Shown: positions 7,890 through 37,935 of the stretch, one piece after another
How positions within the stretch are numbered: position 1 is the stretch's first letter
Layout: each line of letters starts with the position of its first letter
IMG/VR virus record: IMGVR_UViG_3300000756_000010
Length of the DNA stretch: 64,000 nt
Origin: a virus
Direction: 5' to 3' (one strand)
Notes under the pieces: model-generated
What the model was told of the DNA's origin: nothing
The model's database searches: none
What the model saw: the letters and a program-made list of their open reading frames with translations, nothing else
Position numbers and translations under genes: made by a program

Positions 7890-8861
7890 ATGTCACCCGC
7901 CTCTACTACACTAGTTCCTTACGGAAATAATCTCCTTACTCCTATACCCCAACCGGGTTGGCAGGTGGAGGCAGATGGCTTTGGTCTGTTACAGGCCCAA
8001 TGCAAATTTAAATGGGATTATTCAATGCGCGGATCGTTTCCGACCACGTTTAAAAAGGGCGACAAACTTTCCACGTTTATCTCTGGCGTTGAATCTGCTT
8101 ATGCAAATATGGGTCTTTGGAGGGCCAACATGACGACCGACAAAAACAATGTTTTGACGGTTACGGCTGACTTCTGCGGTATTGATCCGAGTGTAAATGG
8201 AGGAACAAAGACGAATACCCAAATGGTTATGACTGGTGCAACAGGGTCTGAGCCGATTGAACACCACCCCAATTTTCTCGTTCAAAATTTAGTAACAGGT
8301 TCTGGTGAGATGAAGGTTTTAGCCGGCTTCCCAAGTGCCAGCGGTTGGAATCCCTCTTTGACGCCTACAATCAATCCAAGCACGGGTGTCGGCGGTAACC
8401 CCAATCGTGCCTTGTGGACGCCAAGGGTTGCAAGCGGGGGTGCTACTCAAGGGCAGCAATTTGTCGGCTTCTTGCCCAATCAAGACCCGTCAGAATATCC
8501 AGGCAACATTAACATCAAGGCAGGAATCAAAAATTATTACAAGCCCTCCACAACGATGCGTTGTTTGTTCTATGTAAATGACGAGGTAAACGCCCTTGCT
8601 TTTGCATCTTATGTTGGCTGGACCACAAGCGGTGCAGTTTATCAAGTTCCTATTGCATACCAACAACTCGCCACCGGCGGATACGGAGGAAATCTAATTT
8701 ACACATCAGTCTGGCAAAACCAAATTCGGAGGGGTTTCTTAATTACAAGTTGTTCGGTAGAAGTATATGGTGGTATCTATAAGTTGACCGCCGATCTTAT
8801 GCTTTCCGGCATTGGTGGCTGGGATAAAGATATCTATCCAAACCTTGACGGACCAGCCTGA
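7890..8861 (+). CDS. Tail tip / distal tail protein
   Basis: 323 aa, Gly/Thr/Asn-rich, directly after tape measure. Confidence 0.5.
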   Translation: MSPASTTLVPYGNNLLTPIPQPGWQVEADGFGLLQAQCKFKWDYSMRGSFPTTFKKGDKLSTFISGVESAYANMGLWRANMTTDKNNVLTVTADFCGIDPSVNGGTKTNTQMVMTGATGSEPIEHHPNFLVQNLVTGSGEMKVLAGFPSASGWNPSLTPTINPSTGVGGNPNRALWTPRVASGGATQGQQFVGFLPNQDPSEYPGNINIKAGIKNYYKPSTTMRCLFYVNDEVNALAFASYVGWTTSGAVYQVPIAYQQLATGGYGGNLIYTSVWQNQIRRGFLITSCSVEVYGGIYKLTADLMLSGIGGWDKDIYPNLDGPA

Positions 8862-9454
8862 TGAGATCAATCGGAGGATTTAATGGTTCGTCAATTAGCG
8901 GTTCTTTTGCCGCTGGTGAGCCTATTTCGGCTACCGCGCTGAACAAACTTGCAGCCGGAATTGATGCAACACGGTCAATGCCTAGTAACGATGTTTTGTT
9001 TCAGTCTAACACGAACGGTACCGCATATAACTTACCGCAGCAGATTTATTATTCCCCCACTAGTGGCCCTCTTGATCCCAACTTGGACGACGATAAAGTA
9101 ATCATAACCCCAGGCACCGTCAACCGATACATCCCCAAGATTGGTTCAACATATATCGACAGCATCCCTGCACCTAAACTATCAATTAATAACGATGGAT
9201 ATGTTATGGTAAAGGTGACCTATGCGGTAAATAAATTTTTCCCGCGCACCGCAGAAATTGTATTTATGGCAGTTACGACTCCCCCGGCGGATACACTTGA
9301 TGAAAGTTATTGGCCGTTAGCCAAGGTGAACAAAAGCGTGACCAGCTCTGGGACTACTTATGCGCTGCAATACTTCTCTAATGGTAATCTGATTGTCAAT
9401 CGCTTGTTAGCCGGTCAAGGAGAGGCTACTTGGTGGTGGGACGTCATTAAATAA
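8861..9454 (+). CDS. Minor tail protein
   Basis: 197 aa, TGATG-coupled, within the tail-tip block. Confidence 0.45.
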   Translation: MRSIGGFNGSSISGSFAAGEPISATALNKLAAGIDATRSMPSNDVLFQSNTNGTAYNLPQQIYYSPTSGPLDPNLDDDKVIITPGTVNRYIPKIGSTYIDSIPAPKLSINNDGYVMVKVTYAVNKFFPRTAEIVFMAVTTPPADTLDESYWPLAKVNKSVTSSGTTYALQYFSNGNLIVNRLLAGQGEATWWWDVIK

Positions 9455-10279
9455 ATGCCAGACCAATGGAATGCATCTACGGCCTATGGACCTGACTCCG
9501 TGGTCGAATACAATAATCTAGTCTACAAGCGTTCTAGATTTCCAAATACTGTTGATGTGGGGCCGCCCCCTAATGAAGCGATGGGAGTTGATCCTCTTGG
9601 TGAACCGATTAGAACGTGGACGCTAAATCAATATGATTTTGATTTTTTAAATAAAAGAAATCGTATCATCCCAAGGTATTTTAGGCTTATTCAAGATTAT
9701 GATACAGTCGCTGGTTTTACAAATTACCAAGGCATGACAAAATTTGCCCAAAGTGCTTATAATTATTATTTCTTTGATATTAAATATTCAGACGGCTACA
9801 CGGTAGAAATAGATCAATCAGGCAGCGGCTTTGGAGATGTCCCGGCAAACAAGTGCGGGGTGGCCTTGCAACAACGGCAAGAACTCAACTGGGATACTTA
9901 CGAGACGCCACCCACTTTCGGTGTGGAGGCTTATATAATTGTTAGGCAAAATTTAATTAAAGTAGGCGGACAATGGGTTGAAGACCCAAACGCACAGCCA
10001 CCATTTACTTATTATGCGTTTTTGCTTTTCAACCATCCTTTATATTTTAGGCGCGTCTTCCAGCTCGCATATTATTATGGAGACAATGCATCACCGTCGG
10101 TAAATCACGAAGTGACTAAAAATTTTACGCCGACGGACAAGAATTACTGTCGGAGAGACTTTCTTAATAACGGATCAGAAAGTTATTTCCAGCCAGACAA
10201 TGCCGCCTGGACGTTTACCCTTTCTGCCGGCGATATATTGGGTTCCGTTTGGGTAAAAAGCATAGAGTCAAACGACTGA
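9455..10279 (+). CDS. Minor tail / receptor-binding-associated protein
   Basis: 274 aa, aromatic-rich and AT-rich; N-terminal WNASTAY....VVEYN..VY resembles carbohydrate-binding type 5/12 repeats. Confidence 0.4.
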   Translation: MPDQWNASTAYGPDSVVEYNNLVYKRSRFPNTVDVGPPPNEAMGVDPLGEPIRTWTLNQYDFDFLNKRNRIIPRYFRLIQDYDTVAGFTNYQGMTKFAQSAYNYYFFDIKYSDGYTVEIDQSGSGFGDVPANKCGVALQQRQELNWDTYETPPTFGVEAYIIVRQNLIKVGGQWVEDPNAQPPFTYYAFLLFNHPLYFRRVFQLAYYYGDNASPSVNHEVTKNFTPTDKNYCRRDFLNNGSESYFQPDNAAWTFTLSAGDILGSVWVKSIESND

Positions 10280-14274: not shown

Positions 14275-14940
14275 CTAGGCGGCTTTCTTGGGGTAAGGCA
14301 GGACTGGGTACTTCAGCTTTTTCATCAGTTCCTTCTTACGGGTCTTGGAACAGTTAAAATAGATGTACCGATACTTCATGCTGCTAAAGTATTCCTCAAC
14401 CATGTCTTCGCCATATTGATCAATGATGTCCTGCTTCGTCATGCGTTCCCGGCGGCGGTAGACCGTCCCACCAGCGTTAACCGATGCATTCTTGGGTCGG
14501 AAGTACTTCATCTTCGGGCTAATGCCCGTATAAATCCAATTGGTAGCTTGGTAGATATACCCAATATGTCCCTGCTCGGAATCCGCAAAGGACACGATAA
14601 TTTCAAAGGGGCATTGGCGAAGGGCATGGCCTACAAAGAAGCTTTCAGTATTCTTGGGCATCGATTCCTCAACCCATAACCTATTGAACTCAACCACGTT
14701 CTTGCTTTCGTCGTTGCCGCAAATGCCGTTGCAAAGAGTGTAGGAAGACGGCTTGCCAAAGACAATCACGCCGACAAGCCTGCCTTGCTGAAAGAAATCA
14801 TCATTGGTCGTCTCGTTGGTGAATAAGCCAAACGACGCTGAACAGGAACATTCCCTGTGCAGGTAATGATTTTTAACGATGGTATCCATTGCCAACCTAT
14901 ATTCGATAGGTCTTACCGTGAGAGTAGACACGATGCTCAT
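14275..14940 (-). CDS. mom: Mom-like DNA adenine modification enzyme (GNAT fold)
   Basis: NHYLH, GVIVFG.P, EFNRLW, SFADSEQGHIGYIYQATNWIYTG motifs typical of Mu Mom homologues. Confidence 0.8.
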   Translation of the reverse strand: MSIVSTLTVRPIEYRLAMDTIVKNHYLHRECSCSASFGLFTNETTNDDFFQQGRLVGVIVFGKPSSYTLCNGICGNDESKNVVEFNRLWVEESMPKNTESFFVGHALRQCPFEIIVSFADSEQGHIGYIYQATNWIYTGISPKMKYFRPKNASVNAGGTVYRRRERMTKQDIIDQYGEDMVEEYFSSMKYRYIYFNCSKTRKKELMKKLKYPVLPYPKKAA

Positions 14941-17181: not shown

Positions 17182-17424
17182 TCAACCGTAAAAGTATTTC
17201 ATCTGAATCCGACGACCGTCAAAAAAGCGTAACTTTACTTTCTTTATCTTCCCAGCCTTCTCCATCTGCATTAACCAAACCCGTGCAGTCGAAAGGTGGA
17301 TGCCCCACTTTTTTGACCAATCTTCCGTGGATTTGTAGCCCTTGGGGACAAGCTCGGCAGATCGGGACTTGATGGCCCATAACTGTTTAAGGACGTCTTT
17401 TGAATTCATACTGGCAAAATCCAT
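17182..17424 (-). CDS. Small winged-HTH-like protein
   Basis: STEDWSKKWGIHLSTARVWLMQMEKAGKIKK pattern. Confidence 0.5.
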   Translation of the reverse strand: MDFASMNSKDVLKQLWAIKSRSAELVPKGYKSTEDWSKKWGIHLSTARVWLMQMEKAGKIKKVKLRFFDGRRIQMKYFYG

Positions 17425-18128
17425 TCATCTTGACCGTGCGGCTGCTCATGTACCCACGGTATCAGTTTCTCGTCAGTATAGTAGCCGAAGACCATGCCCT
17501 GCGACCAGGCGAACGTCGCCCTGCGCGTATTGGCGTAATCCATAGCCCCCCGGCGGGTCAAGGTGCCAACGCTGATGCCCGTCGGAGTATCGTCCCGTCG
17601 TCCCGTCATGCGACCAACCTTGTGCGTATGGGCAAAGATCACGTTCCCGTACATCTCGGCCATGTCCCGTGGGGCGTTTTCGCCGTATACCGTACCGTGC
17701 GTAAACTTGTAGTTGGCCAACTGGAACGCTTGCCAGATTCCCGTGTACTCAACAAACAGGGCTTTCCGCTTCCGGCAATGCTCGGTGATGTCGTTGATGA
17801 GGCGAATCGCATAGCCAGAATAAATCTCGTCGTTGGAGGCGGCTTCGCGCCAGAGGCGGACTTCGTGATTGCCGGCCAAAACGACGTTAGGGCGGAGCTG
17901 GTCTAGGAACTTTAGCCCCCCGCCAATGTCGGGTTCGACGGCGTCGCCCTTGCCCCGTGCCGATGACATGAACGGGGTCATATCAACGAAGTCTCCAAGG
18001 TGGACGGTCATATGGGGCTTCCAGCGTTCCTTGAACTTTAGCACCCCCTCGATGGCCTTCGGATCAGCATACATCCCGTGGGAGCAACCTACCGCCATGA
18101 ACCGCTTCCAACCTTTATTGATGTTCAT
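17406..18128 (-). CDS. Calcineurin-like metallophosphoesterase
   Basis: GCSHG, GDFVD, GNHE, THG, AHTH motifs. Confidence 0.8.
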   Translation of the reverse strand: MNINKGWKRFMAVGCSHGMYADPKAIEGVLKFKERWKPHMTVHLGDFVDMTPFMSSARGKGDAVEPDIGGGLKFLDQLRPNVVLAGNHEVRLWREAASNDEIYSGYAIRLINDITEHCRKRKALFVEYTGIWQAFQLANYKFTHGTVYGENAPRDMAEMYGNVIFAHTHKVGRMTGRRDDTPTGISVGTLTRRGAMDYANTRRATFAWSQGMVFGYYTDEKLIPWVHEQPHGQDEWILPV

Positions 18129-18585: not shown

Positions 18586-18767
18586 TTGCGGTGTTTAGAT
18601 GGTTTTAAGTTTAAACCAAGGTGTCTTGCGGCGTTGTAAAGGCTGGCACGGCTAAAACCAGATTTAGTCTCAATCTCGGAATATGTCATGCCGGCGGCGT
18701 GGGCCTCGATGATTGCTTCCTTAACTTTGCCGTAAGTTTCTCGGCGCGTTAGTTTATTTTTTTCCAT
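18582..18767 (-). CDS. Small HTH protein
   Basis: GMTYSEIETKSGFSRASLYNAARHLGL; start MEKNKL preferred. Confidence 0.55.
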   Translation of the reverse strand: MEKNKLTRRETYGKVKEAIIEAHAAGMTYSEIETKSGFSRASLYNAARHLGLNLKPSKHRK

Positions 18768-18916
18768 TTGTTTAAAGGTTGTTCCATAAGTTTTTTCCAA
18801 CGTTCCCGATCAGCTTTGCCAACCGATTCTACTTTTTGCACTTCATACCAAGTTAGTCCTTTTTTAATAAAGCGGGTGTTTTTGCAGGACATCCCTACTT
18901 GTTTGGGGTGGCTCAT
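18749..18916 (-). CDS. Hypothetical basic protein (55 aa, MSHPKQVGMSCK...)
   Basis: Translated by hand; ATGA overlap with upstream stop; fills a gap in the operon. Confidence 0.45.
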   Translation of the reverse strand: MSHPKQVGMSCKNTRFIKKGLTWYEVQKVESVGKADRERWKKLMEQPLNKWKKIN

Positions 18917-19086
18917 GGCTGTACCTCCCTTGCGTCTGGAGTGATGGCGTTGCCGGAAGTAATGGCGTCTGTTAGGCGTTCGACCTGGGAACGGAGCCGC
19001 TCGACCTCGGCCTTGAGGCGGGCGTTCTCAGCGTTCAGTTCGCCGATGCGTTTCATCATGGTCACTTCCAGATGTACCTTGCTCAC
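18913..19086 (-). CDS. Small coiled-coil protein
   Basis: ELNAENARLKAEVERL; GTGA overlap start at 19086. Confidence 0.5.
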   Translation of the reverse strand: MSKVHLEVTMMKRIGELNAENARLKAEVERLRSQVERLTDAITSGNAITPDAREVQP

Positions 19087-19397
19087 GGCTGCTTGCCCTC
19101 CTTGGCGGCGTTCCATCCGTTTTTAGCGGCGTTCCAGGCGGCTTTTCTTGGAGGCCAATCCGCAGTTGGGTCTCCGACTGCTTCAGCCAAGGCATCACCG
19201 GCTTTGATGATACGCTCGTATTGATGGGACGGGACGGCGGTGACAAAAGACGATTCACGCAGCCTTTGGTTCTCGGCCTTGAGTTCGTTACAACGGGCGT
19301 CCAACTCGTCGCAAATCTCTTTCCAGCGCGGCAAGTCGGCCCATGCCCTGACCATCTCAGCCCACTTATCTGGATCAACGGGAATAAATTTGCTCAT
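19083..19397 (-). CDS. Hypothetical coiled-coil protein
   Basis: ELKAENQRLR; coupled overlaps. Confidence 0.55.
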   Translation of the reverse strand: MSKFIPVDPDKWAEMVRAWADLPRWKEICDELDARCNELKAENQRLRESSFVTAVPSHQYERIIKAGDALAEAVGDPTADWPPRKAAWNAAKNGWNAAKEGKQP

Positions 19398-19984
19398 CGG
19401 TATATTTGGTACACTTCAGACGCTACGGCACGAACCCCAGTAGGGTCAACCGCCAATCGGGTATGGAGTATTTGCATCGCCGACATCATGTCAGCCAAGC
19501 TGCCCGCCTCTTCGTCGTTCGCCGGCCCGAAGCCTGGACGCTGAATCTCGACCGTCACGATCTGCACCTCAAGGTGCTTGGCCAGAAAGAGGTACTCATT
19601 CAAATAACGCCAATCGGAGATAAGGGCGATAGGGCGGACATCCAGCGGCGCGTAATCCATGAACAGGGCAACCTGAGCGTTCAAGTGCCGTGCGAAGATG
19701 TCTTTGTCTACCCCCCGGAGGGTACGTCCCAATTCGACCAGCAGCCCCCGATTCTTGACCTTAAAGTCTTCGGCGTGGAAATCTCGCTCGCCAGCTTTGA
19801 AAACCCCCATAGCCCGAAGCACGTCGTTCGCCCGTTCCTTCAGCACGTCGGCAAACTTAAACACCTCGGCACGGTTGCCGTTGCCGTTAAAGTGTTCCAT
19901 CAGACAAGCGGCGAAGGTGTCCTTCCCCGCGCGAGCGACCCCGGTGATCATAAAGACCAGCGGCTTATTGTTCTTAGGCATCAT
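19394..19984 (-). CDS. Deoxynucleoside monophosphate kinase-like P-loop protein
   Basis: ITGVARAGKDT Walker A, FADVLK, R..L..LG, ISDWRYLNE motifs. Confidence 0.75.
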   Translation of the reverse strand: MMPKNNKPLVFMITGVARAGKDTFAACLMEHFNGNGNRAEVFKFADVLKERANDVLRAMGVFKAGERDFHAEDFKVKNRGLLVELGRTLRGVDKDIFARHLNAQVALFMDYAPLDVRPIALISDWRYLNEYLFLAKHLEVQIVTVEIQRPGFGPANDEEAGSLADMMSAMQILHTRLAVDPTGVRAVASEVYQIYR

Positions 19985-20739
19985 AGTTTTTTGTAAACTG
20001 AAAGCGTTTCGTGAACTTTAACGGTATACCCCAAGCGTTTAGCCTGTGGAAGCATGATTTTCACTTTGCTGATTCCAAGCCTTGATACGACGACTTTGTC
20101 GAACGGAACAAAGCCAAGTTGGTGCATGATCAGTTCGGTCTGGAAAGTCAGGTCATAATAGATGCCGTCCTCGCGCCAGTCACCCGTCATAATGCAATAG
20201 GTCGCACCGTTCGACGCTTTGACTGCAAACCTCGAAAGCACGTCCTTATATTCCAAAAGGAAACCTTGCCAGTTTTTGCAACGATCAAGCCCGTCGTCGC
20301 CAGCATACTTTTCCAACCCCCAGTAAGGGGGGCAGGTAAGCAGCCCGTCGTGCTGCGGGACTTCGACCATGCGGGAATCAGCAAGGGTATTCTTAACCCC
20401 ATACTTTTCCAGCGCGTTGGCAATAGCTTCGCAAGAAAGGTCAAACCCTTGATAGGCACGGCCATGCCGCTTGATGGCGTCGCCACGTTCCCCCCATCCG
20501 GCAAACGGGTCTACAGTAAGGCTTGCCCCGCGCAGGAATAGGGCGGCACAGGTTTCGGCCACTTCATATGGGAAAGGGCTGTATCCGCTTCGGCTAGATT
20601 GCTTGTTATGATTCGTATCACCCCGGACGCCGTGCTTGCCCATCGGCCCAATCTCCATGACGGATACTGGCAAGACCTCAAGGTGGTCTGCCGGCTTCGT
20701 CGTAGCAGGTATTTGGAATAGGTCTTCCATGCTAGGCAT
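19981..20739 (-). CDS. DNA amino-methyltransferase (N6-A or N4-C)
   Basis: Motif I DPFAGWG and motif IV TCPPYW; start 20739 lies just after the helicase stop. Confidence 0.75.
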   Translation of the reverse strand: MPSMEDLFQIPATTKPADHLEVLPVSVMEIGPMGKHGVRGDTNHNKQSSRSGYSPFPYEVAETCAALFLRGASLTVDPFAGWGERGDAIKRHGRAYQGFDLSCEAIANALEKYGVKNTLADSRMVEVPQHDGLLTCPPYWGLEKYAGDDGLDRCKNWQGFLLEYKDVLSRFAVKASNGATYCIMTGDWREDGIYYDLTFQTELIMHQLGFVPFDKVVVSRLGISKVKIMLPQAKRLGYTVKVHETLSVYKKL

Positions 20740-32044: not shown

Positions 32045-32591
32045 AGATTATCAGAGGTTCTGGAAGCTGCTATCGAAGGCGGAACGACAGGCGTTGCTTT
32101 CGACTGGGTTCGACCCGGCCCGGCCCGACGACGCCGGCGTCCCTTTCGCACATCGTTACTTTTCAGGAGAACCTACGGACGAGGGTGATGGTGAACACCA
32201 AACCGTGGGCGGATGGGGTAAGGGCTATGACATCAATAATCTTCAGGCGTTACAATGGAGGTTGCGTGATCGCAACGAGACGTCCGAGATGAGCAATAAG
32301 ATGTTCACACAGGACGAGGTGCTGGACATCCTCCGCAAGGTGATTGCCGTCATTGATTTTTCGACCCATGCAGAAGTACGTCTCCACGGAACGTGCATCA
32401 AGTTGGCACTAGGGATGCCCGACCAGCCGACCATGACAGCCTTGGCCAACCAGCACCGGCTGACCCGTGCGGCAATCTCGGCGCGGGTAAAGACTATCCA
32501 GCGTAACTTAAACCTGCCACCGTCGCTGTACATGAAGTCCGACGCCGCTTGCAAGAAACTGTCCAACGCCCGAAGGAAGAAACTCAAGTGA
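32031..32591 (+). CDS. Transcription regulator with C-terminal HTH (sigma region 4-like)
   Basis: PTMTALANQHRLTRAAISARVKTIQRNL HTH; directly upstream of terS. Confidence 0.55.
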   Translation: MPIYEDYQRFWKLLSKAERQALLSTGFDPARPDDAGVPFAHRYFSGEPTDEGDGEHQTVGGWGKGYDINNLQALQWRLRDRNETSEMSNKMFTQDEVLDILRKVIAVIDFSTHAEVRLHGTCIKLALGMPDQPTMTALANQHRLTRAAISARVKTIQRNLNLPPSLYMKSDAACKKLSNARRKKLK

Positions 32592-33223
32592 GCGACAGAC
32601 CTCGCCCCATCGACCTTGCTGGACGCTTCGGTGTCACCAAGCAGGCCATCAACAAATTCATCCAAGCGGGGATGCCCATCGACTCAATCGAGTCCGCTGA
32701 AGCCTGGTACATGGCACGGGGTGCCGGTCGCATGGGCAACAACGTCCGACCCGATAAGGATTTCAATGAGACCGTCGAGCGTCAGCGCGAACTGAAGGCT
32801 TTGGCCTACCAGCAGTACCTTGACGACCTTGGGAGTAATTCGCCCGACGCCAGCAAGTCGTATGCGACCTACGACAAGTTGGTAAAGACGCTGGTCACGC
32901 TGGAGAAGGAACTCCAAGCCCGACAGATTGCCAGCCGTGAGTACATCCGCACCCAGACCGCCATCGAAAGGTTCGGAAGAGTGTTCGCGCAGGTTCGGGA
33001 GGAGGTTACTCAGCTCGGCACTAAACTGGCGTCGAGGGTCAACCCTGACAATCCCGGTCGTGCCATGAAGGCCATCGACGACGAGGTAAAGAAGATGCTA
33101 GAACGACTTTCGTCCGCCGCTGGCTATGCCGAGCAGGCCGTGATCAAGGAAGTAGACACGGAAGATCCAATTGAGGTTGACTCTGGCGATGAGGATTCAA
33201 TAGATGAGGTTGAATCGCCATGA
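32588..33223 (+). CDS. terS: Terminase small subunit (Nu1-like)
   Basis: N-terminal HTH RPIDLAGRFGVTKQAINKFIQAGMP, coiled coil, P..LA.R.; GTG start at 32588. Confidence 0.8.
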   Translation: MSDRPRPIDLAGRFGVTKQAINKFIQAGMPIDSIESAEAWYMARGAGRMGNNVRPDKDFNETVERQRELKALAYQQYLDDLGSNSPDASKSYATYDKLVKTLVTLEKELQARQIASREYIRTQTAIERFGRVFAQVREEVTQLGTKLASRVNPDNPGRAMKAIDDEVKKMLERLSSAAGYAEQAVIKEVDTEDPIEVDSGDEDSIDEVESP

Positions 33224-34089
33224 GTTACTTTGAACCTCCACCCCAAACTAAATTTACAGTACTTAATCTAGGTGCTGGCGTCCAGTCGTCGGCTTTGGCC
33301 CTTATGGCCGCCAAGGGTGTGGTCGGCCCTATGCCAGATTTTGCTGTATTTGCCGATACCCAGGCCGAACCGACCAGCGTATATAAATGGCTTGATTGGC
33401 TTGAGACCCAACTTCCATTCCCTGTTATTCGTGTAACCAAGGGAAGCCTTACAGAGAGCATTCTTAAAATTAGAGTAAAAGAAAAATGCAAGTATTCGGA
33501 AGCCCCAATGACTTACCTGCGCACAAATATCCCAGTTTATGGACTTACACCTTCTGGTGAAGTAAAGCCAGCTTTGGGACGTGCTTGTACCGCCGATTTC
33601 AAAGTAGCTCCGATTATCAAAGAAATCAGAAGTCGTTGCGGGATTAGGCATGGTCAGAAAGAAATTACTGTCACTCAATGGCTCGGAATCTCCTACGACG
33701 AGATGCAACGTATGAAACTGCCAAGAGATCCGTGGACGCAGCATCGCTGGCCTTTAGTCGAAAAGCGGATGACTCGTTCTCATTGCAAAGAATGGATGGA
33801 AAAAAACGGTTACCCAGAGCCTCCTCGCTCGGCTTGTTATTATTGCCCATTCCATGATGATGATGAGTGGCGACGCCTTAAAACGGAAGACCCAGAACAT
33901 TTTCAAAAGGCCGTTGAATTCGACAAGACCTATCGCCGCCTTCAAAACGAAAACCCCGGTGGTTTACGCATTGAGGTTTATCTTCACAAATCATGCAAGC
34001 CTCTCGACGAAGTAGATTTCACAGATAAGCACAAAGACCAGCTTGGCTTTGACTTTAAGTCCGAGTGCGAGGGGATGTGCGGTTTGTGA
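33220..34089 (+). CDS. PAPS-reductase / adenine nucleotide alpha-hydrolase family protein (DndC-like)
   Basis: PP-loop variant LNLGAGVQSS, FADT..E, WLGIS.DE..R, SACYYCPFH, CEGMCG. Confidence 0.75.
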   Translation: MSYFEPPPQTKFTVLNLGAGVQSSALALMAAKGVVGPMPDFAVFADTQAEPTSVYKWLDWLETQLPFPVIRVTKGSLTESILKIRVKEKCKYSEAPMTYLRTNIPVYGLTPSGEVKPALGRACTADFKVAPIIKEIRSRCGIRHGQKEITVTQWLGISYDEMQRMKLPRDPWTQHRWPLVEKRMTRSHCKEWMEKNGYPEPPRSACYYCPFHDDDEWRRLKTEDPEHFQKAVEFDKTYRRLQNENPGGLRIEVYLHKSCKPLDEVDFTDKHKDQLGFDFKSECEGMCGL

Positions 34090-35951
34090 TCATCGACCCG
34101 CATACAGTCGATACTTTCGAGGCTCACATCCGAGCGATGATGACGCCCGACCCCGAAGGCGATATCGTGCAATGGCTGGAAGCTAACGTGCGCGAAGTAC
34201 CAGGCTCGCCGCAGCCTGGGCCGTTCCGAGTGGAGTCCACGCCGTTTCTTGCTCCCATTCTCCGGGCGTTGACCGACCCAGAGATTACTACCGTCGTCGT
34301 ACTCGGTGCGGTGCAGATGGGGAAGTCATCCCTGCTGGAACTGTGGTCGACGTTCATCCCTGCCCGTTCGCCTGGGCCAACCTTGCTTTTGCAGGACGTC
34401 GACGACAACGCACAGGACTGGCAGAAGGATCGCCTACGTCCAATGTGGGAAGCCACGCCGGCTACGCTGTCCAAGATGGAGGACTCCGAACGCAACCAAT
34501 GGAAGAAGACCCGCTTTGAGCGTAACACCGTCTGGGTGCTGGGTGCGAATAACAAGAAGAACCTCCAGCGTCGTTCCATTCGATTCCTTGGCGGTGACGA
34601 AGTATGGCTCTGGCCCAAGGGTCACTTAAACGAAGCCTTGGCACGTCGCACGGCTTTCATCTGGCAGGGCAAGTCGCTGCTCGTCTCGCAAGGCGGCGTT
34701 GAGGGCGATGACATCACCGACCTGTGGAATCAGTCAGACCGCAGAGAGTGGACGTTCAAGTGTACGCAATGCGGTACGCGCCAAGCCTGGGAGTGGGAGC
34801 AGTTAATCTACCCTGAAGACGCACGGGAGCCGAACGGTTGGAACCTCGATAAGGTCAAGGCCGGCTGCACCTACGAATGCAAATCGTGCAAGCATCGTTA
34901 CCGAGATTCTTTTGAGGTACGCGCCGAGCTGAACTTGACCGGCGAATATACGCCAATGAACCAGAACGCTCCCAAGGGCGTCGTGGGCTTTCATTGGAAC
35001 TCGCTTTGTGCCCAATGGGGATTGGATTGGGGGAAATTGGCGGAGATGGCCATTCGTGCTAAACAAGCATTTGAAGAACACGGTGACGATGTATCTCGTC
35101 GTGAATTCAAACAAAAGAGGTTGGCTCTTTCTTGGTCAGACGACCCTGATGATGGTGGCGGCGAAGTGATGCCCCAAGGGTACAAGATGCTCGATCAATG
35201 GGACAGCGAGGCATACATGGTAGATAGCAAACTTGCAGAACCTCCGTTGAAAGAAGAATACAAGAAGGCAAAGCAGTTTGCGAGGCTGCGTTTTATGGCC
35301 GTCGATGTGCAGCGCAAAGGTTACTACTGGGTCGTCCGAGCGTGGGCGTTGGACGGCAAGTCACGCATGGTTCAATGGGGCTATTGCGATACTGAAGATC
35401 AACTGCGAGAAGCACAGAGGAAACTGGAGGTGTCAGATTTCTTTGTGTTCGTCGATTCCGGCGACGGTCCAAACACCGACACGGTTTATCGGATGTGTGC
35501 AAAGTACGCCTGGAACGCCACCAAGGGATCGGGACAAAATGAGTTTCCTTGGAGAATCCAAACGCCCTACGGGATAAAGGTGGCCTATCGCCCTTATGCT
35601 CGTGCAAAGGTTATTCAGGTCGGCCAGGCTTCCTGTAAGCTTTACCTGTTCTCAAATCTATATTTCAAAGATTCCATGTCGCGCCTTCGCAGGGCTGGTC
35701 ATCACACATACCCGGAAGACGCTGGCGATGAGTACCGCAAGCAAATGCAGTCCGAACACCGCACCAGGCAAGCCAACGGACAGGCCATCTGGCTCCCTAT
35801 TGGCGAAAGGGCTAATCACCTATGGGACGCCGAGGTCATGGGTATGCTGCCGGCCTTGATGGCAAAGTTAATCGGGCGCGGTAAGAACCGCCACGGTAAG
35901 CCCGAAGACCGAAAGCCCGACGAGAAACAATCTGCCGAAGAAACCGCTTGA
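34086..35951 (+). CDS. terL: Terminase large subunit, lambda gpA family
   Basis: Walker A GAVQMGKS, Walker B GGDE, CTQC/CKSC zinc ribbon, GFHWNSL, AVDVQ, NHLWDAEV; GTG 34086. Confidence 0.92.
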   Translation: MIIDPHTVDTFEAHIRAMMTPDPEGDIVQWLEANVREVPGSPQPGPFRVESTPFLAPILRALTDPEITTVVVLGAVQMGKSSLLELWSTFIPARSPGPTLLLQDVDDNAQDWQKDRLRPMWEATPATLSKMEDSERNQWKKTRFERNTVWVLGANNKKNLQRRSIRFLGGDEVWLWPKGHLNEALARRTAFIWQGKSLLVSQGGVEGDDITDLWNQSDRREWTFKCTQCGTRQAWEWEQLIYPEDAREPNGWNLDKVKAGCTYECKSCKHRYRDSFEVRAELNLTGEYTPMNQNAPKGVVGFHWNSLCAQWGLDWGKLAEMAIRAKQAFEEHGDDVSRREFKQKRLALSWSDDPDDGGGEVMPQGYKMLDQWDSEAYMVDSKLAEPPLKEEYKKAKQFARLRFMAVDVQRKGYYWVVRAWALDGKSRMVQWGYCDTEDQLREAQRKLEVSDFFVFVDSGDGPNTDTVYRMCAKYAWNATKGSGQNEFPWRIQTPYGIKVAYRPYARAKVIQVGQASCKLYLFSNLYFKDSMSRLRRAGHHTYPEDAGDEYRKQMQSEHRTRQANGQAIWLPIGERANHLWDAEVMGMLPALMAKLIGRGKNRHGKPEDRKPDEKQSAEETA

Positions 35952-36343: not shown

Positions 36344-37935
36344 TGCGACCTAAAAAGACCACAAAACCTGCTACTCCGCAGGTCAGGAAACCCCAGACCC
36401 CCAAGGTTGGTCGTCAAGTAGTTCCGCAGAAATCGGCTATGGGCGGCAGCGGCCCCGGTATTTTCTCTAATTTCGAGTCAGCCAAGTTCAGCAACAAGCG
36501 GTCGATGATTTGGTCGTCTTGGCCGCAGGACTTCAAGAAGACCATGACGGTGTTCGACCGCATGGAGACGACGCGCAAGATGCGCTGGCTGGAACTCAAC
36601 GCCGGTCTGATCAGGCAAGTGTTGTCCGACATGGCGTTGTATACCGTAGGCGGCGGCATCAAGGCACAGGCACAGTCTGGTGATGAAATGTGGGATGATG
36701 CCGCCGAGGCGTATTTCAAAAGGTGGGGTTCTCGTGCTTGCGATATCACGGGCAGGTTTTCTTTTTTTGAGCTACAGCACATTTGCTGCCGTTTGATGGA
36801 TCGGGATGGAGAAGTGTTTATCATCAAGACCCGTGGTCCAGGCGGCGAACCACGTCTTCAGATTATCGAGTCCCACAGGGTTGGAAATTCTTCTAGCAAC
36901 GAAGTACCGCCTGGAATGGTAGACGGCATCCTTTTTGGTCCTTATGGTCAGCCGATTTCTTACAACGTGATTCGTTCGGATGGTTCTAGCCGACTAGTGC
37001 CGGCAAACGCCGTGCTTCACTTGTACGAACCCGAACTTGCCTCTGGAGCGCGGGCGTATAGCCCCCTCCAGCACTCCATCAATAACTTGGTGGATATGCT
37101 GGAGATTCTTTCGTTAGAGAAATTGGCCGTCAAGACCACGTCTGACATCACGCGCACGATTACCCGTGAGAATCCCAATTTCGATGGGACGCAATCTGAC
37201 TTTGAAGCATTCGGTATGCGTCCGCAGGATTACGGCGACGGTATGACCGATCCGAGCGAGGCTTCAACCTTCCTCGGTGGCAAGGTGCTGGCGTTGGCAC
37301 CAGGCGAAAAACTGGAGTCCTTTGAGTCCAATCGTCCGAACAAAACCTTCGACGGATTTATCGAACATCTTGAGCGCGACTCGCTGGCGGGGATGCTTCC
37401 GTACGAATTTACAGCCAATCCCACCAAGGCCGGCGGAGCTGTTATGCGCTTCGTGGTCGCTAAGGCAGATCGCAAGTTCACGCACCGTCAAGCGGTCATG
37501 GTGCAGCGTTTCCTTACCCCCGTCTGGGGATATGTTATTGGTTGTGCAATTAAGGAAGGATATCTTCCTCCCAGCGAGTATTGGACAAATGTTTCTTGGA
37601 CCACCCCAAGGCGCGTGACCGTCGATGCCGGACGTGACGCTCAACAGAATCGCCAAGACATTGAGTCTGGCCTAAAGACTCTCACAGAAAATTATCTGGA
37701 AGAGGGTCTTGATCCAAAAGAAAAGATGCGCGAGAACGCCGCCGAAAAACGGTATCTGCTCGACCTTGCCAAGGAGTTCGATGTTCCGCTGTCGATGCTC
37801 TACAAGCCCCAGAATGTGGCACCTTCTGACATCAACGCCTCGGTATCTAACAGCGATCCAGATAAAATGGACGATGGTGCCAAGATAGTCGATGACGATG
37901 TAGACCCGGACGACGAAGAAACCTCTAACAAATAA
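36343..37935 (+). CDS. Portal protein, lambda gpB family (full length, 530 aa)
   Basis: Complete ORF; motifs as in copy 1. Confidence 0.9.
   Translation: MRPKKTTKPATPQVRKPQTPKVGRQVVPQKSAMGGSGPGIFSNFESAKFSNKRSMIWSSWPQDFKKTMTVFDRMETTRKMRWLELNAGLIRQVLSDMALYTVGGGIKAQAQSGDEMWDDAAEAYFKRWGSRACDITGRFSFFELQHICCRLMDRDGEVFIIKTRGPGGEPRLQIIESHRVGNSSSNEVPPGMVDGILFGPYGQPISYNVIRSDGSSRLVPANAVLHLYEPELASGARAYSPLQHSINNLVDMLEILSLEKLAVKTTSDITRTITRENPNFDGTQSDFEAFGMRPQDYGDGMTDPSEASTFLGGKVLALAPGEKLESFESNRPNKTFDGFIEHLERDSLAGMLPYEFTANPTKAGGAVMRFVVAKADRKFTHRQAVMVQRFLTPVWGYVIGCAIKEGYLPPSEYWTNVSWTTPRRVTVDAGRDAQQNRQDIESGLKTLTENYLEEGLDPKEKMRENAAEKRYLLDLAKEFDVPLSMLYKPQNVAPSDINASVSNSDPDKMDDGAKIVDDDVDPDDEETSNK

Follow-up and report, generated by a model that had tools for sequence, protein, structure and literature searches.

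Why does a gene resembling PAPS reductases stand between the two terminase genes of a phage, and what might its product do there? The gene lies in IMG/VR virus record IMGVR_UViG_3300000756_000010, here analyzed as one stretch of 64,000 nucleotides (referred to as the window). A preliminary description of this DNA had proposed a DndC-like gene that was inserted precisely between terS and terL, was expressed late, and served DNA modification around packaging rather than sulfate assimilation.

An optional gene at the terS-terL junction

The inserted gene is an ATG-started open reading frame (ORF) of 289 amino acids (aa) on the plus strand, at positions 33220 to 34089. Upstream of it lies terS (32549 to 33223, plus strand; 224 aa by its longest ORF), which matches phrog_57, "terminase small subunit" (E = 6.5e-12), and which is 74 to 96% identical to the terS found upstream of terL in related phages. 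The ATG at 33220 shares bases with the terS stop codon (TGA, 33221 to 33223), forming an ATGA overlap (33220 to 33223, plus strand), and this junction recurs in most gene-carrying relatives regardless of which gene is upstream. On the downstream side, terL (34086 to 35951, plus strand) encodes a lambda gpA-type large terminase subunit (PF05876, E = 2.3e-37; PF20454, E = 4e-16; phrog_15, E = 1.6e-76). The inserted gene ends in a TGA (34087 to 34089) that shares bases with a GTG in the terL reading frame (34086), giving a GTGA overlap (34086 to 34089, plus strand). The longest terL ORF opens further upstream, at the GTG at 34065; because the terL match starts at the codon equivalent to 34086 in all 36 relatives without an insert, we consider 34086 to be the real terL start. 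Both overlaps were thus found, on direct reading of the sequence, as first described. A scan for promoters and terminators around the inserted gene returned none above chance. The earlier label of a "translationally coupled moron" therefore holds for the embedding in the packaging operon and fails in the classical sense of a moron, which has a promoter and terminator of its own.

To place this arrangement among sister phages, we sampled 50 IMG/VR relatives picked by terL. In 36 of them, terS directly abuts terL through one RTGA overlap, at the position equivalent to 34086 to 34089. Thirteen carry the inserted gene at the terS-terL junction, and in the one remaining relative (L124), a 407-aa DPPY DNA methyltransferase occupies the slot instead. 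These counts demonstrate a true insertion polymorphism in which the gene is an optional cassette, and the empty sites confirm its precise accessory placement. The identity of the allele is decoupled from that of terL: in L013 the gene is 90% identical and terL 37%, while in L048 to L051 the gene is 69% identical and terL 96%. No match was found for the DNA of the packaging region among 50,697 phage records, and by terL, the nearest phage in culture is Verrucomicrobia phage P8625 (24% identity). A Mom-like gene showed no covariation with the inserted gene, being present in two of five genomes without the gene and in two of five with it (counting two of the four that are at least 90% complete).

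A comparable arrangement is found in Gordonia phages of cluster CT (PotPie and Yucky), whose gene 2 product shares 37% identity with the inserted protein across 278 aa (E = 7e-46). In PotPie, too, gene 2 sits in the terS-terL interval, where a single small ORF (gene 3) follows it before terL begins. Gene 2 is reported in just 4 of 77 Gordonia cluster CT phages (PMC13130087), indicating the same optional-cassette behavior in an unrelated phage lineage. The Gordonia gene differs from ours in belonging to an actinobacteriophage with another terminase family and in encoding a single tail cysteine. The double translational coupling, the PotPie arrangement, and the occurrence of homologues directly upstream of terL genes of three families might suggest an accessory factor that works physically with terminase during packaging. 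However, the 36 empty-site sister phages package their DNA without the gene, most homologues lie far from any terminase, and lambda ninC, a member of the same family, is non-essential (PMC10695390). We rejected the role of terminase cofactor on the grounds that the gene is optional among sister phages, and regard it as scarcely credible.

The preliminary description had also called the gene visibly AT-richer than both neighbors, and composition agrees: its GC content is 46.9% (GC3, 43.4%), compared with 56.1% for terS (GC3, 66.2%), 55.4% for terL (GC3, 63.7%), and 53.4% for the genome overall. The gene is AT-richer than its flanking genes in 69 of 76 loci. Tail genes at 7890 to 10279 also have 42 to 47% GC, so the gene is not alone in the genome in its AT-richness. 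Synonymous sites (dS) are saturated at a dN of 0.07 to 0.1 and where amino acids have diverged by just 7 to 10%, and dN/dS is 0.03 to 0.1 wherever it could be calculated, indicating strong purifying selection along the full length of the gene. Homologues number 4,284 at E ≤ 1e-5 in a word-indexed search and 4,915 cluster representatives (50% identity clusters) at E ≤ 1e-3 in an exhaustive search. Given these thousands of homologues and the saturation of synonymous sites at low amino acid divergence, the ORF is a real gene.

Family assignment and conserved residues

On profile evidence, the inserted gene is a member of a large known phage family, NinC/PptA (PHROG 424), and not of the CysH family. 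The protein matches phrog_424 over residues 11 to 288 (E = 2.6e-44). An hhalign family profile of 100 relatives (40 to 56% identical) aligned with lambda NinC (probability 97%, E = 6e-11, 187 columns) and with PptA of Vibrio phage VH-5 (probability 95%, E = 3e-8), and it matched chain C of PDB entry 21fy, named PptA (E = 9.5e-4). Pairwise similarity was marginal, both to lambda NinC (BLASTP, E = 0.002) and to the PptA-type protein P8625 gp45 (E = 0.02). In contrast, hhalign of the family profile with Escherichia coli CysH gave a probability of 5%, over 98 N-terminal columns only. Pfam PF01507 (PAPS_reduct) did not match the inserted protein even at E ≤ 10, nor did any NCBIfam model; in a few relatives, PF01507 reached E = 0.002 to 0.003 only, below the cut-off.

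Among the defense models of PADLOC, the best and only match was to SspD (PDLC02782; E = 2.6e-18), a partial match of residues 120 to 238 to positions 82 to 202 of a 277-position profile, with likeness in the PP-loop to CxxC core. Relatives of the inserted protein match this model at E values down to 5.6e-22, and it is likewise the best or only PADLOC match for NinC, PptA, P8625 gp45, PotPie gp2, and HTVC034P gp12 (E = 1e-11 to 1e-22). SspD, a PP-loop ATP pyrophosphatase, acts together with a cysteine desulfurase; its partners are SspA (the desulfurase), SspB (a nickase), and SspC (an ATPase). DndC, of the same superfamily, has a PP-loop and a [4Fe-4S] cluster and receives sulfur from IscS or DndA. 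DndC models did not match the inserted protein (PADLOC, E ≤ 1; NCBIfam, E ≤ 0.01), and those of PADLOC span about 470 to 480 positions, compared with 289 aa here. Membership in DndC is therefore not supported, there being no Dnd or Ssp partner in the genome either. By sequence, the protein nevertheless resembles an SspD/DndC-type sulfur enzyme more closely than the CysH of sulfate assimilation.

All of the motifs listed in the preliminary description are present in the translation: GAGVQS (residues 18 to 23), ACT (C123), SACYYCPF (C206 and C209), SC (C259), and CEGMC (C283 and C287). We scored conservation in an alignment of the 100 relatives (40 to 56% identical). G18, G20, D46, E50, K128, S158, R164, R186, C206, C209, C283, G285, and C287 are invariant in all 100 sequences, C123 and C189 recur in 90% or more, and C259 is not conserved. 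The first conserved block is a PP-loop variant, N-L-G-A-G-V-Q-S-S (residues 16 to 24; positions 33265 to 33291, plus strand), a predicted binding loop for nucleotide alpha-phosphate or pyrophosphate in which at least 90% of sequences keep S16, L17, A19, V21, Q22, and S23; its counterparts in the alignments are SFSGGRTS in NinC and SFGIQAA in E. coli CysH. The second, R-x-C-T-x-x-x-K (residues 121 to 128; 33580 to 33603, plus strand), contributes a candidate Fe-S ligand (C123) and a putative phosphate-binding lysine (K128), with R121, C123, and T124 at least 90% conserved; the motif is common to NinC, PptA, and P8625 gp45 and absent in CysH. The CxxC pair, C206 and C209 (33835 to 33846, plus strand), comprises candidate Fe-S ligands that are also found in NinC, PptA, and gp45 and are absent from E. 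coli CysH. Finally, the C-terminal tail S-E-C-E-G-M-C-G-L (34063 to 34086, plus strand) is a predicted flexible arm that may serve as persulfide acceptor or supply a fourth cluster ligand; residues 283 to 289 have an AF2 pLDDT below 50 (disordered), and PptA and P8625 gp45 have comparable C-x3-C tails. A putative iron-sulfur cluster would most likely sit on C123, C206, and C209, whether or not a tail cysteine takes part.

The motif set as a whole (PP-loop variant, D-T..E, C-T..K, G-I-S-x-D-E..R, CxxC, and C-terminal cysteine tail) is shared with the NinC/PptA family. Lambda NinC (Nin 290, lambdap64) is, like the inserted protein, a solo accessory gene product in the 290-aa length class, and the two have in common a PP-loop, F-x-D-T-x-x-E, G-x-x-C-T-x-x-x-K, W-I-G-I-x-x-D-E-x-x-R, and CxxC. 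In contrast to the inserted protein, NinC keeps a canonical S-G-G-x-x-S loop and spaces its C-terminal cysteines differently, and it is expressed from the delayed-early nin region, beside the DNA-handling genes ninB/orf and ninG/rap, rather than from a packaging operon. PptA of vB_VhaP_VH-5 (orthologue of P8625 gp45) shares the CT..K, CxxC, and C-x3-C tail features and is distant, belonging to a different subfamily. It too is a solo gene, between an RNA polymerase gene and structural genes in VH-5, while the P8625 copy lies in the early region, unlike the packaging-operon copy here. Among the relatives, a structure has been solved for PptA alone (chain C of PDB 21fy, an entry that also contains E. 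coli IscS). Our literature searches returned no relevant paper on PptA, and those on cysH/AMG/DndC, phage-encoded phosphorothioation, and ParB/PAPS returned no functional study of the NinC/PptA family.

The AF2 model of the inserted protein (pLDDT, 91.6) has a Rossmann-like alpha/beta PP-loop fold in which the nucleotide-binding loop follows strand 1 near the N terminus, and from family and fold, the protein is probably an ATP-using enzyme of the PP-loop ATP-pyrophosphatase type. The best structural matches were PAPS/APS reductases (Z = 10.8 to 12.7), within an overall range (Z = 9 to 12.7) that also covers TilS, CysD, NcsA, LarE, GMP synthetase, and QueC; comparisons with the predicted model thus fail to separate PAPS/APS reductases from TilS, CysD, NcsA, or LarE. 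Foldseek searches of PDB and BFVD gave generic PP-loop matches only (TM, about 0.4 to 0.56), and an ESM Atlas search with the inserted protein added nothing further.

These results bear on whether the gene could encode a genuine PAPS/APS reductase and act as an auxiliary metabolic gene, raising sulfate assimilation in the infected host. Annotations of the family routinely say so (phrog_424 and others), the top structural matches are of this class, and CysH resembles the inserted protein in its fold, its G-x-Q-type PP-loop variant, its D-T motif, and its flexible C-terminal cysteine tail. The C-G-L end of that tail recalls ECGLH, the C-terminal catalytic motif of CysH, although the tail here reads E-C-E-G-M-C-G-L. 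Set against these likenesses are the failed PF01507 and NCBIfam matches, the confinement of the hhalign match with CysH to the N-terminal loop region, and the lack in CysH of the CT..K and CxxC cysteines, the extra conserved positions of the inserted family. In PADLOC, moreover, E. coli CysH goes to BrxP, whereas the NinC/PptA family goes to SspD. The gene occurs in about a quarter of the sister phages, amid DNA-handling genes, and no other cys gene is present in the genome, so that the context of sulfate assimilation is missing. We therefore consider a true PAPS/APS reductase very unlikely, in agreement with the preliminary view that this PAPS-reductase-like gene does not serve sulfate assimilation.

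Genomic context, partners, and proposed function

Most homologues lie in early replication/recombination modules, examples being lambda ninC, Thermus phage P23-77, Pelagibacter and Geobacillus phages, Mycobacterium abscessus prophages, and many IMG/VR loci. Late expression is consequently not a conserved property of the family, and the argument that had been built on packaging timing does not stand. Neighbor genes vary widely between loci and include terminases of three families, metallophosphoesterase, DnaB/primase, DnaC, exonuclease VIII, Erf, Holliday-junction resolvase, and DNA methyltransferases. Because phages keep accessory genes of all kinds in such places, these surroundings argue only weakly for DNA as the substrate. 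In P0273, the family member carries a fused winged-helix DNA-binding domain. We also folded a form of the family fused to DUF6339 (pLDDT, 88); its helical N-terminal domain had no informative match in PDB, in profile databases, or in the Atlas.

One set of neighbors raised the possibility of action on the nucleotide pool, in which the protein, together with a phage metallophosphoesterase and dNMP kinase, would make thio-dNTP for replication. This phage encodes a metallophosphoesterase (17406 to 18128; phrog_221) and a P-loop kinase-like gene (19394 to 19984; "dNMP kinase" according to an earlier note), and P8625 and VH-5 each have an annotated metallophosphoesterase, a putative dNMP kinase, and a PptA-type gene. 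In 12 IMG/VR loci, the family gene also has a metallophosphoesterase as its immediate neighbor, and in 2 more the distance is at most two genes. However, 72% of the sister phages (terL about 96% identical) lack the inserted gene, which therefore cannot be an obligatory step of nucleotide supply; here it lies in a late packaging operon, too late for pre-replicative synthesis, and the kinase of this phage has no detectable similarity to those of P8625 or VH-5. Such a pathway was rejected as the main reading, given that the gene is optional among sister phages, and appears highly improbable.

Partners of the Ssp and Dnd type were also sought. PADLOC, applied to all 48 ORFs of the genome (36.5 kb), found no match to SspA, SspB, or SspC or to DndB, DndD, or DndE, and no IscS-like gene was found in the window or in about 230 related loci. 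With neighbors that vary from locus to locus, these results indicate that the protein stands alone. This separates it from SspD, a gene of cellular defense islands rather than a phage accessory gene, whose partners are not encoded in this phage; phosphorothioation of DNA by DndC or SspD requires nicking and ATPase partners. A source of sulfur is suggested by PDB entry 21fy, in which PptA is accompanied by a chain identical to E. coli IscS.

The same complex could instead point to a non-catalytic IscS binder, a DndC/SspD mimic that sequesters the desulfurase and, for example, starves a phosphorothioation-based or Fe-S-dependent defense. A solo gene with an accessory distribution is typical of anti-defense genes, as this explanation would have it. 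The PP-loop glycines, D46, E50, K128, R164, R186, and the cluster and tail cysteines are nevertheless invariant in very divergent members, and a mere binder would have no need of such residues; strong purifying selection over the whole length likewise counts against it. Together with the low dN/dS and the PP-loop fold, the invariant catalytic-type residues argue for an enzyme rather than a decoy, and we judge the binder to be a distinctly unlikely explanation.

We tentatively favor, at a little short of an even chance, a stand-alone sulfurtransferase that is fed by host IscS, acts on nucleic acid, and serves as an optional anti-defense or marking gene. The enzyme would dock on host IscS and receive sulfur on its cluster or on a tail cysteine. 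It would then spend ATP to adenylate an oxygen on a nucleic acid substrate, and the adenylated oxygen would be swapped for sulfur. The preferred substrate would be phage DNA, at a backbone phosphate or a base, with tRNA as the main alternative. On this reading, the gene came into the phage lineage as a compact cassette whose ends restore the RTGA overlap at which terS stops and terL starts, so that it is co-translated with its packaging neighbors late in infection. Most likely, its role is neither in the packaging machinery nor in sulfate assimilation.

The bias toward nucleic acid in this proposal comes from the DNA-handling neighbors, the winged-helix fusion in P0273, and the methyltransferase found in the same slot. 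A tRNA substrate, of the host or the phage, would make the protein a thiolase comparable to the solo IscS-dependent enzymes ThiI, MnmA, TtcA, and TtuA/NcsA, and the phage would gain from tuned translation or from the shielding of a tRNA against host anticodon nucleases. IscS is the sulfur donor of tRNA thiolases, and the complex of the homologue PptA with IscS fits this reading, as does a solo gene that has neither a nickase nor an ATPase as partner. The fold also fits NcsA (Z = 11.2), TtuA (Z = 10.0), and TilS (Z = 11.0 to 11.4) about as well as PAPS reductases. On the other hand, the nearest characterized family by sequence is SspD, a subunit of DNA phosphorothioation; no THUMP, OB, or other RNA-binding extension is found within the 289 aa; a fusion to a DNA-binding domain exists; and DNA methyltransferases recur as neighbors, one of them as the alternative occupant of the slot. 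We thus regard tRNA thiolation as a minority explanation, of low probability.

Returning to the favored sulfurtransferase acting on nucleic acid, DNA modification by its product is a plausible hypothesis, and the idea has been voiced before for phage PAPS-reductase-like genes (PMC4642752; PMC8092301), with DndC proposed as their analogue by Dedrick et al. (PMC8092301). A more specific version would be sulfur marking of DNA by one protein, in which host IscS sulfur is used to make a phosphorothioate or a thio-base with no nickase or ATPase, in a manner interchangeable with the methyltransferase of the slot; production of the enzyme alongside the terminase would let this phage mark its DNA shortly before packaging. 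In this full form, the proposal is speculative and we hold it to be unlikely.

Implications for phage "PAPS reductases"

The finding reveals no new kind of system. Its interest lies in the fact that "PAPS reductase" annotations are among the commonest reported phage "auxiliary metabolic genes" and are often taken as helpers of sulfur assimilation, a reading exemplified by a Bifidobacterium prophage preprint. The present case adds evidence that a large part of phage "PAPS reductases" (4,915 cluster representatives, including lambda NinC) are not CysH; these family members are stand-alone SspD-like enzymes that probably tap host IscS. Lambda ninC and gene 2 of Gordonia cluster CT offer tractable models for the function of the family. 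The sister phages, for their part, form a natural series that is useful for experiments, in which near-identical phages have an empty junction, the gene, the gene plus a small ORF, or a DNA methyltransferase, and this series provides a clean comparative argument for the behavior of an optional DNA-modification or anti-defense cassette.

Gene layout and insertion at the terS-terL junction

The 64-kb window holds a single 36,552-bp genome, repeated to approximately 1.75 copies: all 27,448 comparable positions match the base 36,552 nucleotides farther along, and features in 1-27448 are repeated at 36553-64000, while the PP-loop gene is present once only. No DNA match to this genome was found among 50,697 phage records. 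Its nearest cultured relative by large terminase is Verrucomicrobia phage P8625 (24% identity), and the closest cellular homologues of the PP-loop gene lie in Verrucomicrobiota MAGs, with a Luteolibacter MAG copy being 58% identical.

The PP-loop gene is a 289-aa ORF on the plus strand (33220-34089). Its ATG lies on the stop codon of the upstream gene in an ATGA overlap (33220-33223, plus strand), and at its 3' end the TGA stop overlaps GTG 34086 (plus strand), a codon in the reading frame of the downstream ORF. The upstream gene encodes the small terminase subunit TerS (phrog_57, E = 6.5e-12), and the downstream gene encodes TerL, a lambda gpA-type large subunit (PF05876, E = 2e-37; PF20454, E = 4e-16). 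Both overlaps and both flanks were confirmed as reported in the preliminary description, along with an AT content higher than that of either neighbor (GC of 46.9% and GC3 of 43%, versus 56% and 66% for terS and 55% and 64% for terL). The tail genes at 7890-10279 are just as AT-rich, so this contrast is local and not unique in the genome. In 69 of 76 loci (L010-L089), the PP-loop gene likewise has a higher AT content than the flanking genes, lying about 5 GC points under them, yet its composition tracks theirs (r = 0.79).

To count occupancy of the junction, we used 66 IMG/VR loci retrieved by terL similarity alone, so that sampling was independent of the presence of the PP-loop gene, and restricted the count to the 50 that showed both terS and the terL start. 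The two terminase genes directly abut in 36 of these loci, whereas 13 contain the PP-loop gene, either alone (7 loci) or with an additional small ORF of roughly 63 to 70 aa (6 loci). The same slot in one further locus (L124, with a 92% identical terL) is occupied instead by a 407-aa DNA methyltransferase with a DPPY motif (L124:1343-2566, plus strand). At the empty site, which reads ...GTCGA|RTGATCATCGAC..., the start codon of terL lies on the terS stop; the cassette in the window opens with its own ATGA and closes by restoring GTGATCATCGAC. The proposal of an exactly inserted, translationally coupled accessory gene is strongly supported. The longest terL ORF opens at GTG 34065, within the PP-loop gene, but comparison with the 36 empty-site relatives shows that the true start is GTG 34086.

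How similar the PP-loop gene is between loci does not follow the similarity of its flanking genes. In locus L013, a 90% identical copy sits between a terS and a terL that are 27% and 37% identical, respectively, and in loci L048-L051 the terL is 96% identical but the PP-loop copy just 69%. The arrangement recurs in an unrelated phage lineage: gene 2 of Gordonia phage PotPie (37% identical protein, E = 7e-46) is likewise flanked by terS and terL, with a single small ORF intervening before terL. A genome note reports this gene from just 4 of the 77 cluster CT phages (PMC13130087). No promoter- or terminator-like sites above chance were found around the PP-loop gene, which makes it an accessory cassette embedded in the operon and not, as the earlier term has it, a moron of the classical type with signals of its own.

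Separately, at least nine loci (L051:2878-3090, L049:1993-2205, L030:1196-1408, L033:2875-3078, L055-L057, L063, and L044) have a small ORF of ~60 to 70 aa directly 3' of the PP-loop gene, in which the motif C-P-(P/K)-D-(D/S) is conserved. The contexts of this ORF vary, including positions ahead of terL and ahead of a DnaB-like gene, and it is absent from the window. This ORF may be a travelling partner of the PP-loop gene.

Family assignment and conserved residues

The PP-loop protein had been described as PAPS reductase- or DndC-like. Searches of Pfam and NCBIfam gave no match, with PAPS_reduct not appearing even at E ≤ 10. PHROG 424, labeled "phosphoadenosine phosphosulfate reductase," did match (E = 2.6e-44), and the sole PADLOC match was SspD (E = 2.6e-18). 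SspD is likewise the best PADLOC match for lambda NinC, PptA of Vibrio phage VH-5, the PptA orthologue P8625 gp45, PotPie gp2, and HTVC034P gp12, whereas E. coli CysH matched BrxP. In hhalign comparisons, the family profile aligned with NinC (probability of 97%, E = 6e-11, 187 columns) and PptA (95%, E = 3e-8), compared with 5% for E. coli CysH (E = 0.0079, confined to the N-terminal loop region). The AlphaFold model, based on 100 relatives (pLDDT of 91.6, with the last seven residues not confident), has a PP-loop ATP-pyrophosphatase fold; PAPS/APS reductases were its top structural matches (Z of 10.8 to 12.7), virtually level with TilS, CysD, NcsA, and LarE. The protein thus very probably belongs to the NinC/PptA family (PHROG 424), an already known and very large phage family of unsolved function. 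A word-indexed search yielded 4,284 homologous proteins at E ≤ 1e-5, and an exhaustive search yielded 4,915 representatives at 50% identity and E ≤ 1e-3. The absence of a PAPS_reduct match and the poor alignment to CysH support the earlier view that the gene does not serve sulfate assimilation. "DndC-like" is accurate at the superfamily level only, as DndC models were unmatched and SspD, NinC, and PptA are closer.

Conservation was scored over 100 sequences that are 40 to 56% identical to the query. Seventeen residues are invariant (G18, G20, D46, E50, P105, K128, S158, R164, L179, R186, S204, C206, C209, P210, C283, G285, and C287), and C123, T124, and C189 are kept in at least 90% of sequences. 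Together they form a PP-loop variant and D-T..E, C-T..K, G-I-S-x-D-E..R, CxxC, and C-x-G-x-C-G tail motifs; all of the cysteine and PP-loop motifs quoted previously are present. NinC, PptA, and gp45 also have the C-T..K, CxxC, and tail cysteines; E. coli CysH lacks these but shares the D-T..E motif. Alleles differing at 7 to 10% of non-synonymous sites are already saturated at synonymous sites, as are alleles 90% identical in protein, and dN/dS is 0.03 to 0.1 where computable. Judged from sequence, this pattern fits an active enzyme and not a decaying passenger or a mere binder.

Proposed sulfur source and candidate substrate

PptA (encoded at 18758-19510 in phage VH-5) is contained in PDB entry 21fy (E = 2.4e-69 versus P8625 gp45), alongside a chain that matches E. 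coli IscS exactly. Our literature search found no publication on PptA or this entry. ThiI, MnmA (via Tus), TtcA, and DndC all receive persulfide sulfur from IscS, and both DndC and SspD are PP-loop enzymes partnered with a desulfurase. No desulfurase gene was found in the phage genome or near any homologue examined. From the PptA-IscS entry and these known roles, we infer that the PP-loop protein would draw sulfur from a host desulfurase; by the same analogy, it would activate its substrate with ATP. Transfer from host IscS itself is reasonably probable.

Among the loci compared, the PP-loop gene has no conserved partner gene. Its immediate neighbors are either large terminases of three different families or replication and recombination genes, encoding metallophosphoesterase, DnaB/primase, DnaC, exonuclease VIII, Erf, Holliday-junction resolvase, and DNA methyltransferases. 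A metallophosphoesterase, which this phage also encodes, adjoins it in 12 loci and is at most two genes away in 2 more. DNA methyltransferase genes lie within ~250 bp in at least six otherwise differing contexts, spanning viral contigs and bacterial genomes (L168, L169, L177, L081, L082, and L064). In bacterial genomes, 15 clusters fuse an N-terminal DUF6339 domain to the PP-loop domain (P0274-P0288 and P0239; ~540 aa), and protein P0273 carries an ArsR/MarR-type winged-helix DNA-binding domain in fusion; structure and sequence comparison of the helical DUF6339 part gave no lead. We slightly favor a nucleic acid as the substrate, and DNA specifically is a tentative proposal. The contexts, the fusions, and the same-slot methyltransferase lean circumstantially toward a DNA target and an anti-restriction-like role. 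DNA modification has been proposed before for the P8625 gene (PMC4642752) and for M. abscessus prophage genes (PMC8092301).

A tRNA target is a serious rival to DNA. Solo IscS-dependent thiolases typically target tRNA, and the Dnd and Ssp systems require nicking and ATPase partners, neither of which was found in this phage.

Three more genes of the phage stand out, all on the minus strand. A Mom-like DNA modification gene (14275-14940; phrog_1384, E = 5e-52) is present or absent in sister genomes independently of the PP-loop gene; the variant in sister genome G001 is 41% identical. The P-loop kinase-like gene at 19394-19984, previously read as a dNMP kinase, was not detectably similar to the dNMP kinases of P8625 or VH-5. 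A methyltransferase gene with a C-P-P-Y motif lies at 19981-20739. Spurious long plus-strand ORFs (19406-19996 and 20119-20541) overlap the kinase-like and methyltransferase genes and mislead longest-ORF gene calling.

Late timing had been offered as an argument for modification linked to packaging. That argument carries little weight, since the family ordinarily resides in the early region: most cultured-phage homologues are found there, including lambda ninC (between ninB and ninG), Thermus P23-77 ORF3 (near the replication gene), and those of Pelagibacter, Geobacillus, Pseudomonas, and Vibrio phages and M. abscessus prophages. The late expression in this phage may mean no more than that the insertion point is permissive and repeatedly used, but the methyltransferase in the same slot shows that a DNA modifier can be accommodated between terS and terL. 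The PP-loop protein adds a member to PHROG 424 within an already large family; what this case contributes is a clean demonstration, from a population of related phages, that the terS-terL overlap takes a plug-in cassette for which a methyltransferase is the alternative cargo, and the finding that the "PAPS reductase" label is misleading for this gene.
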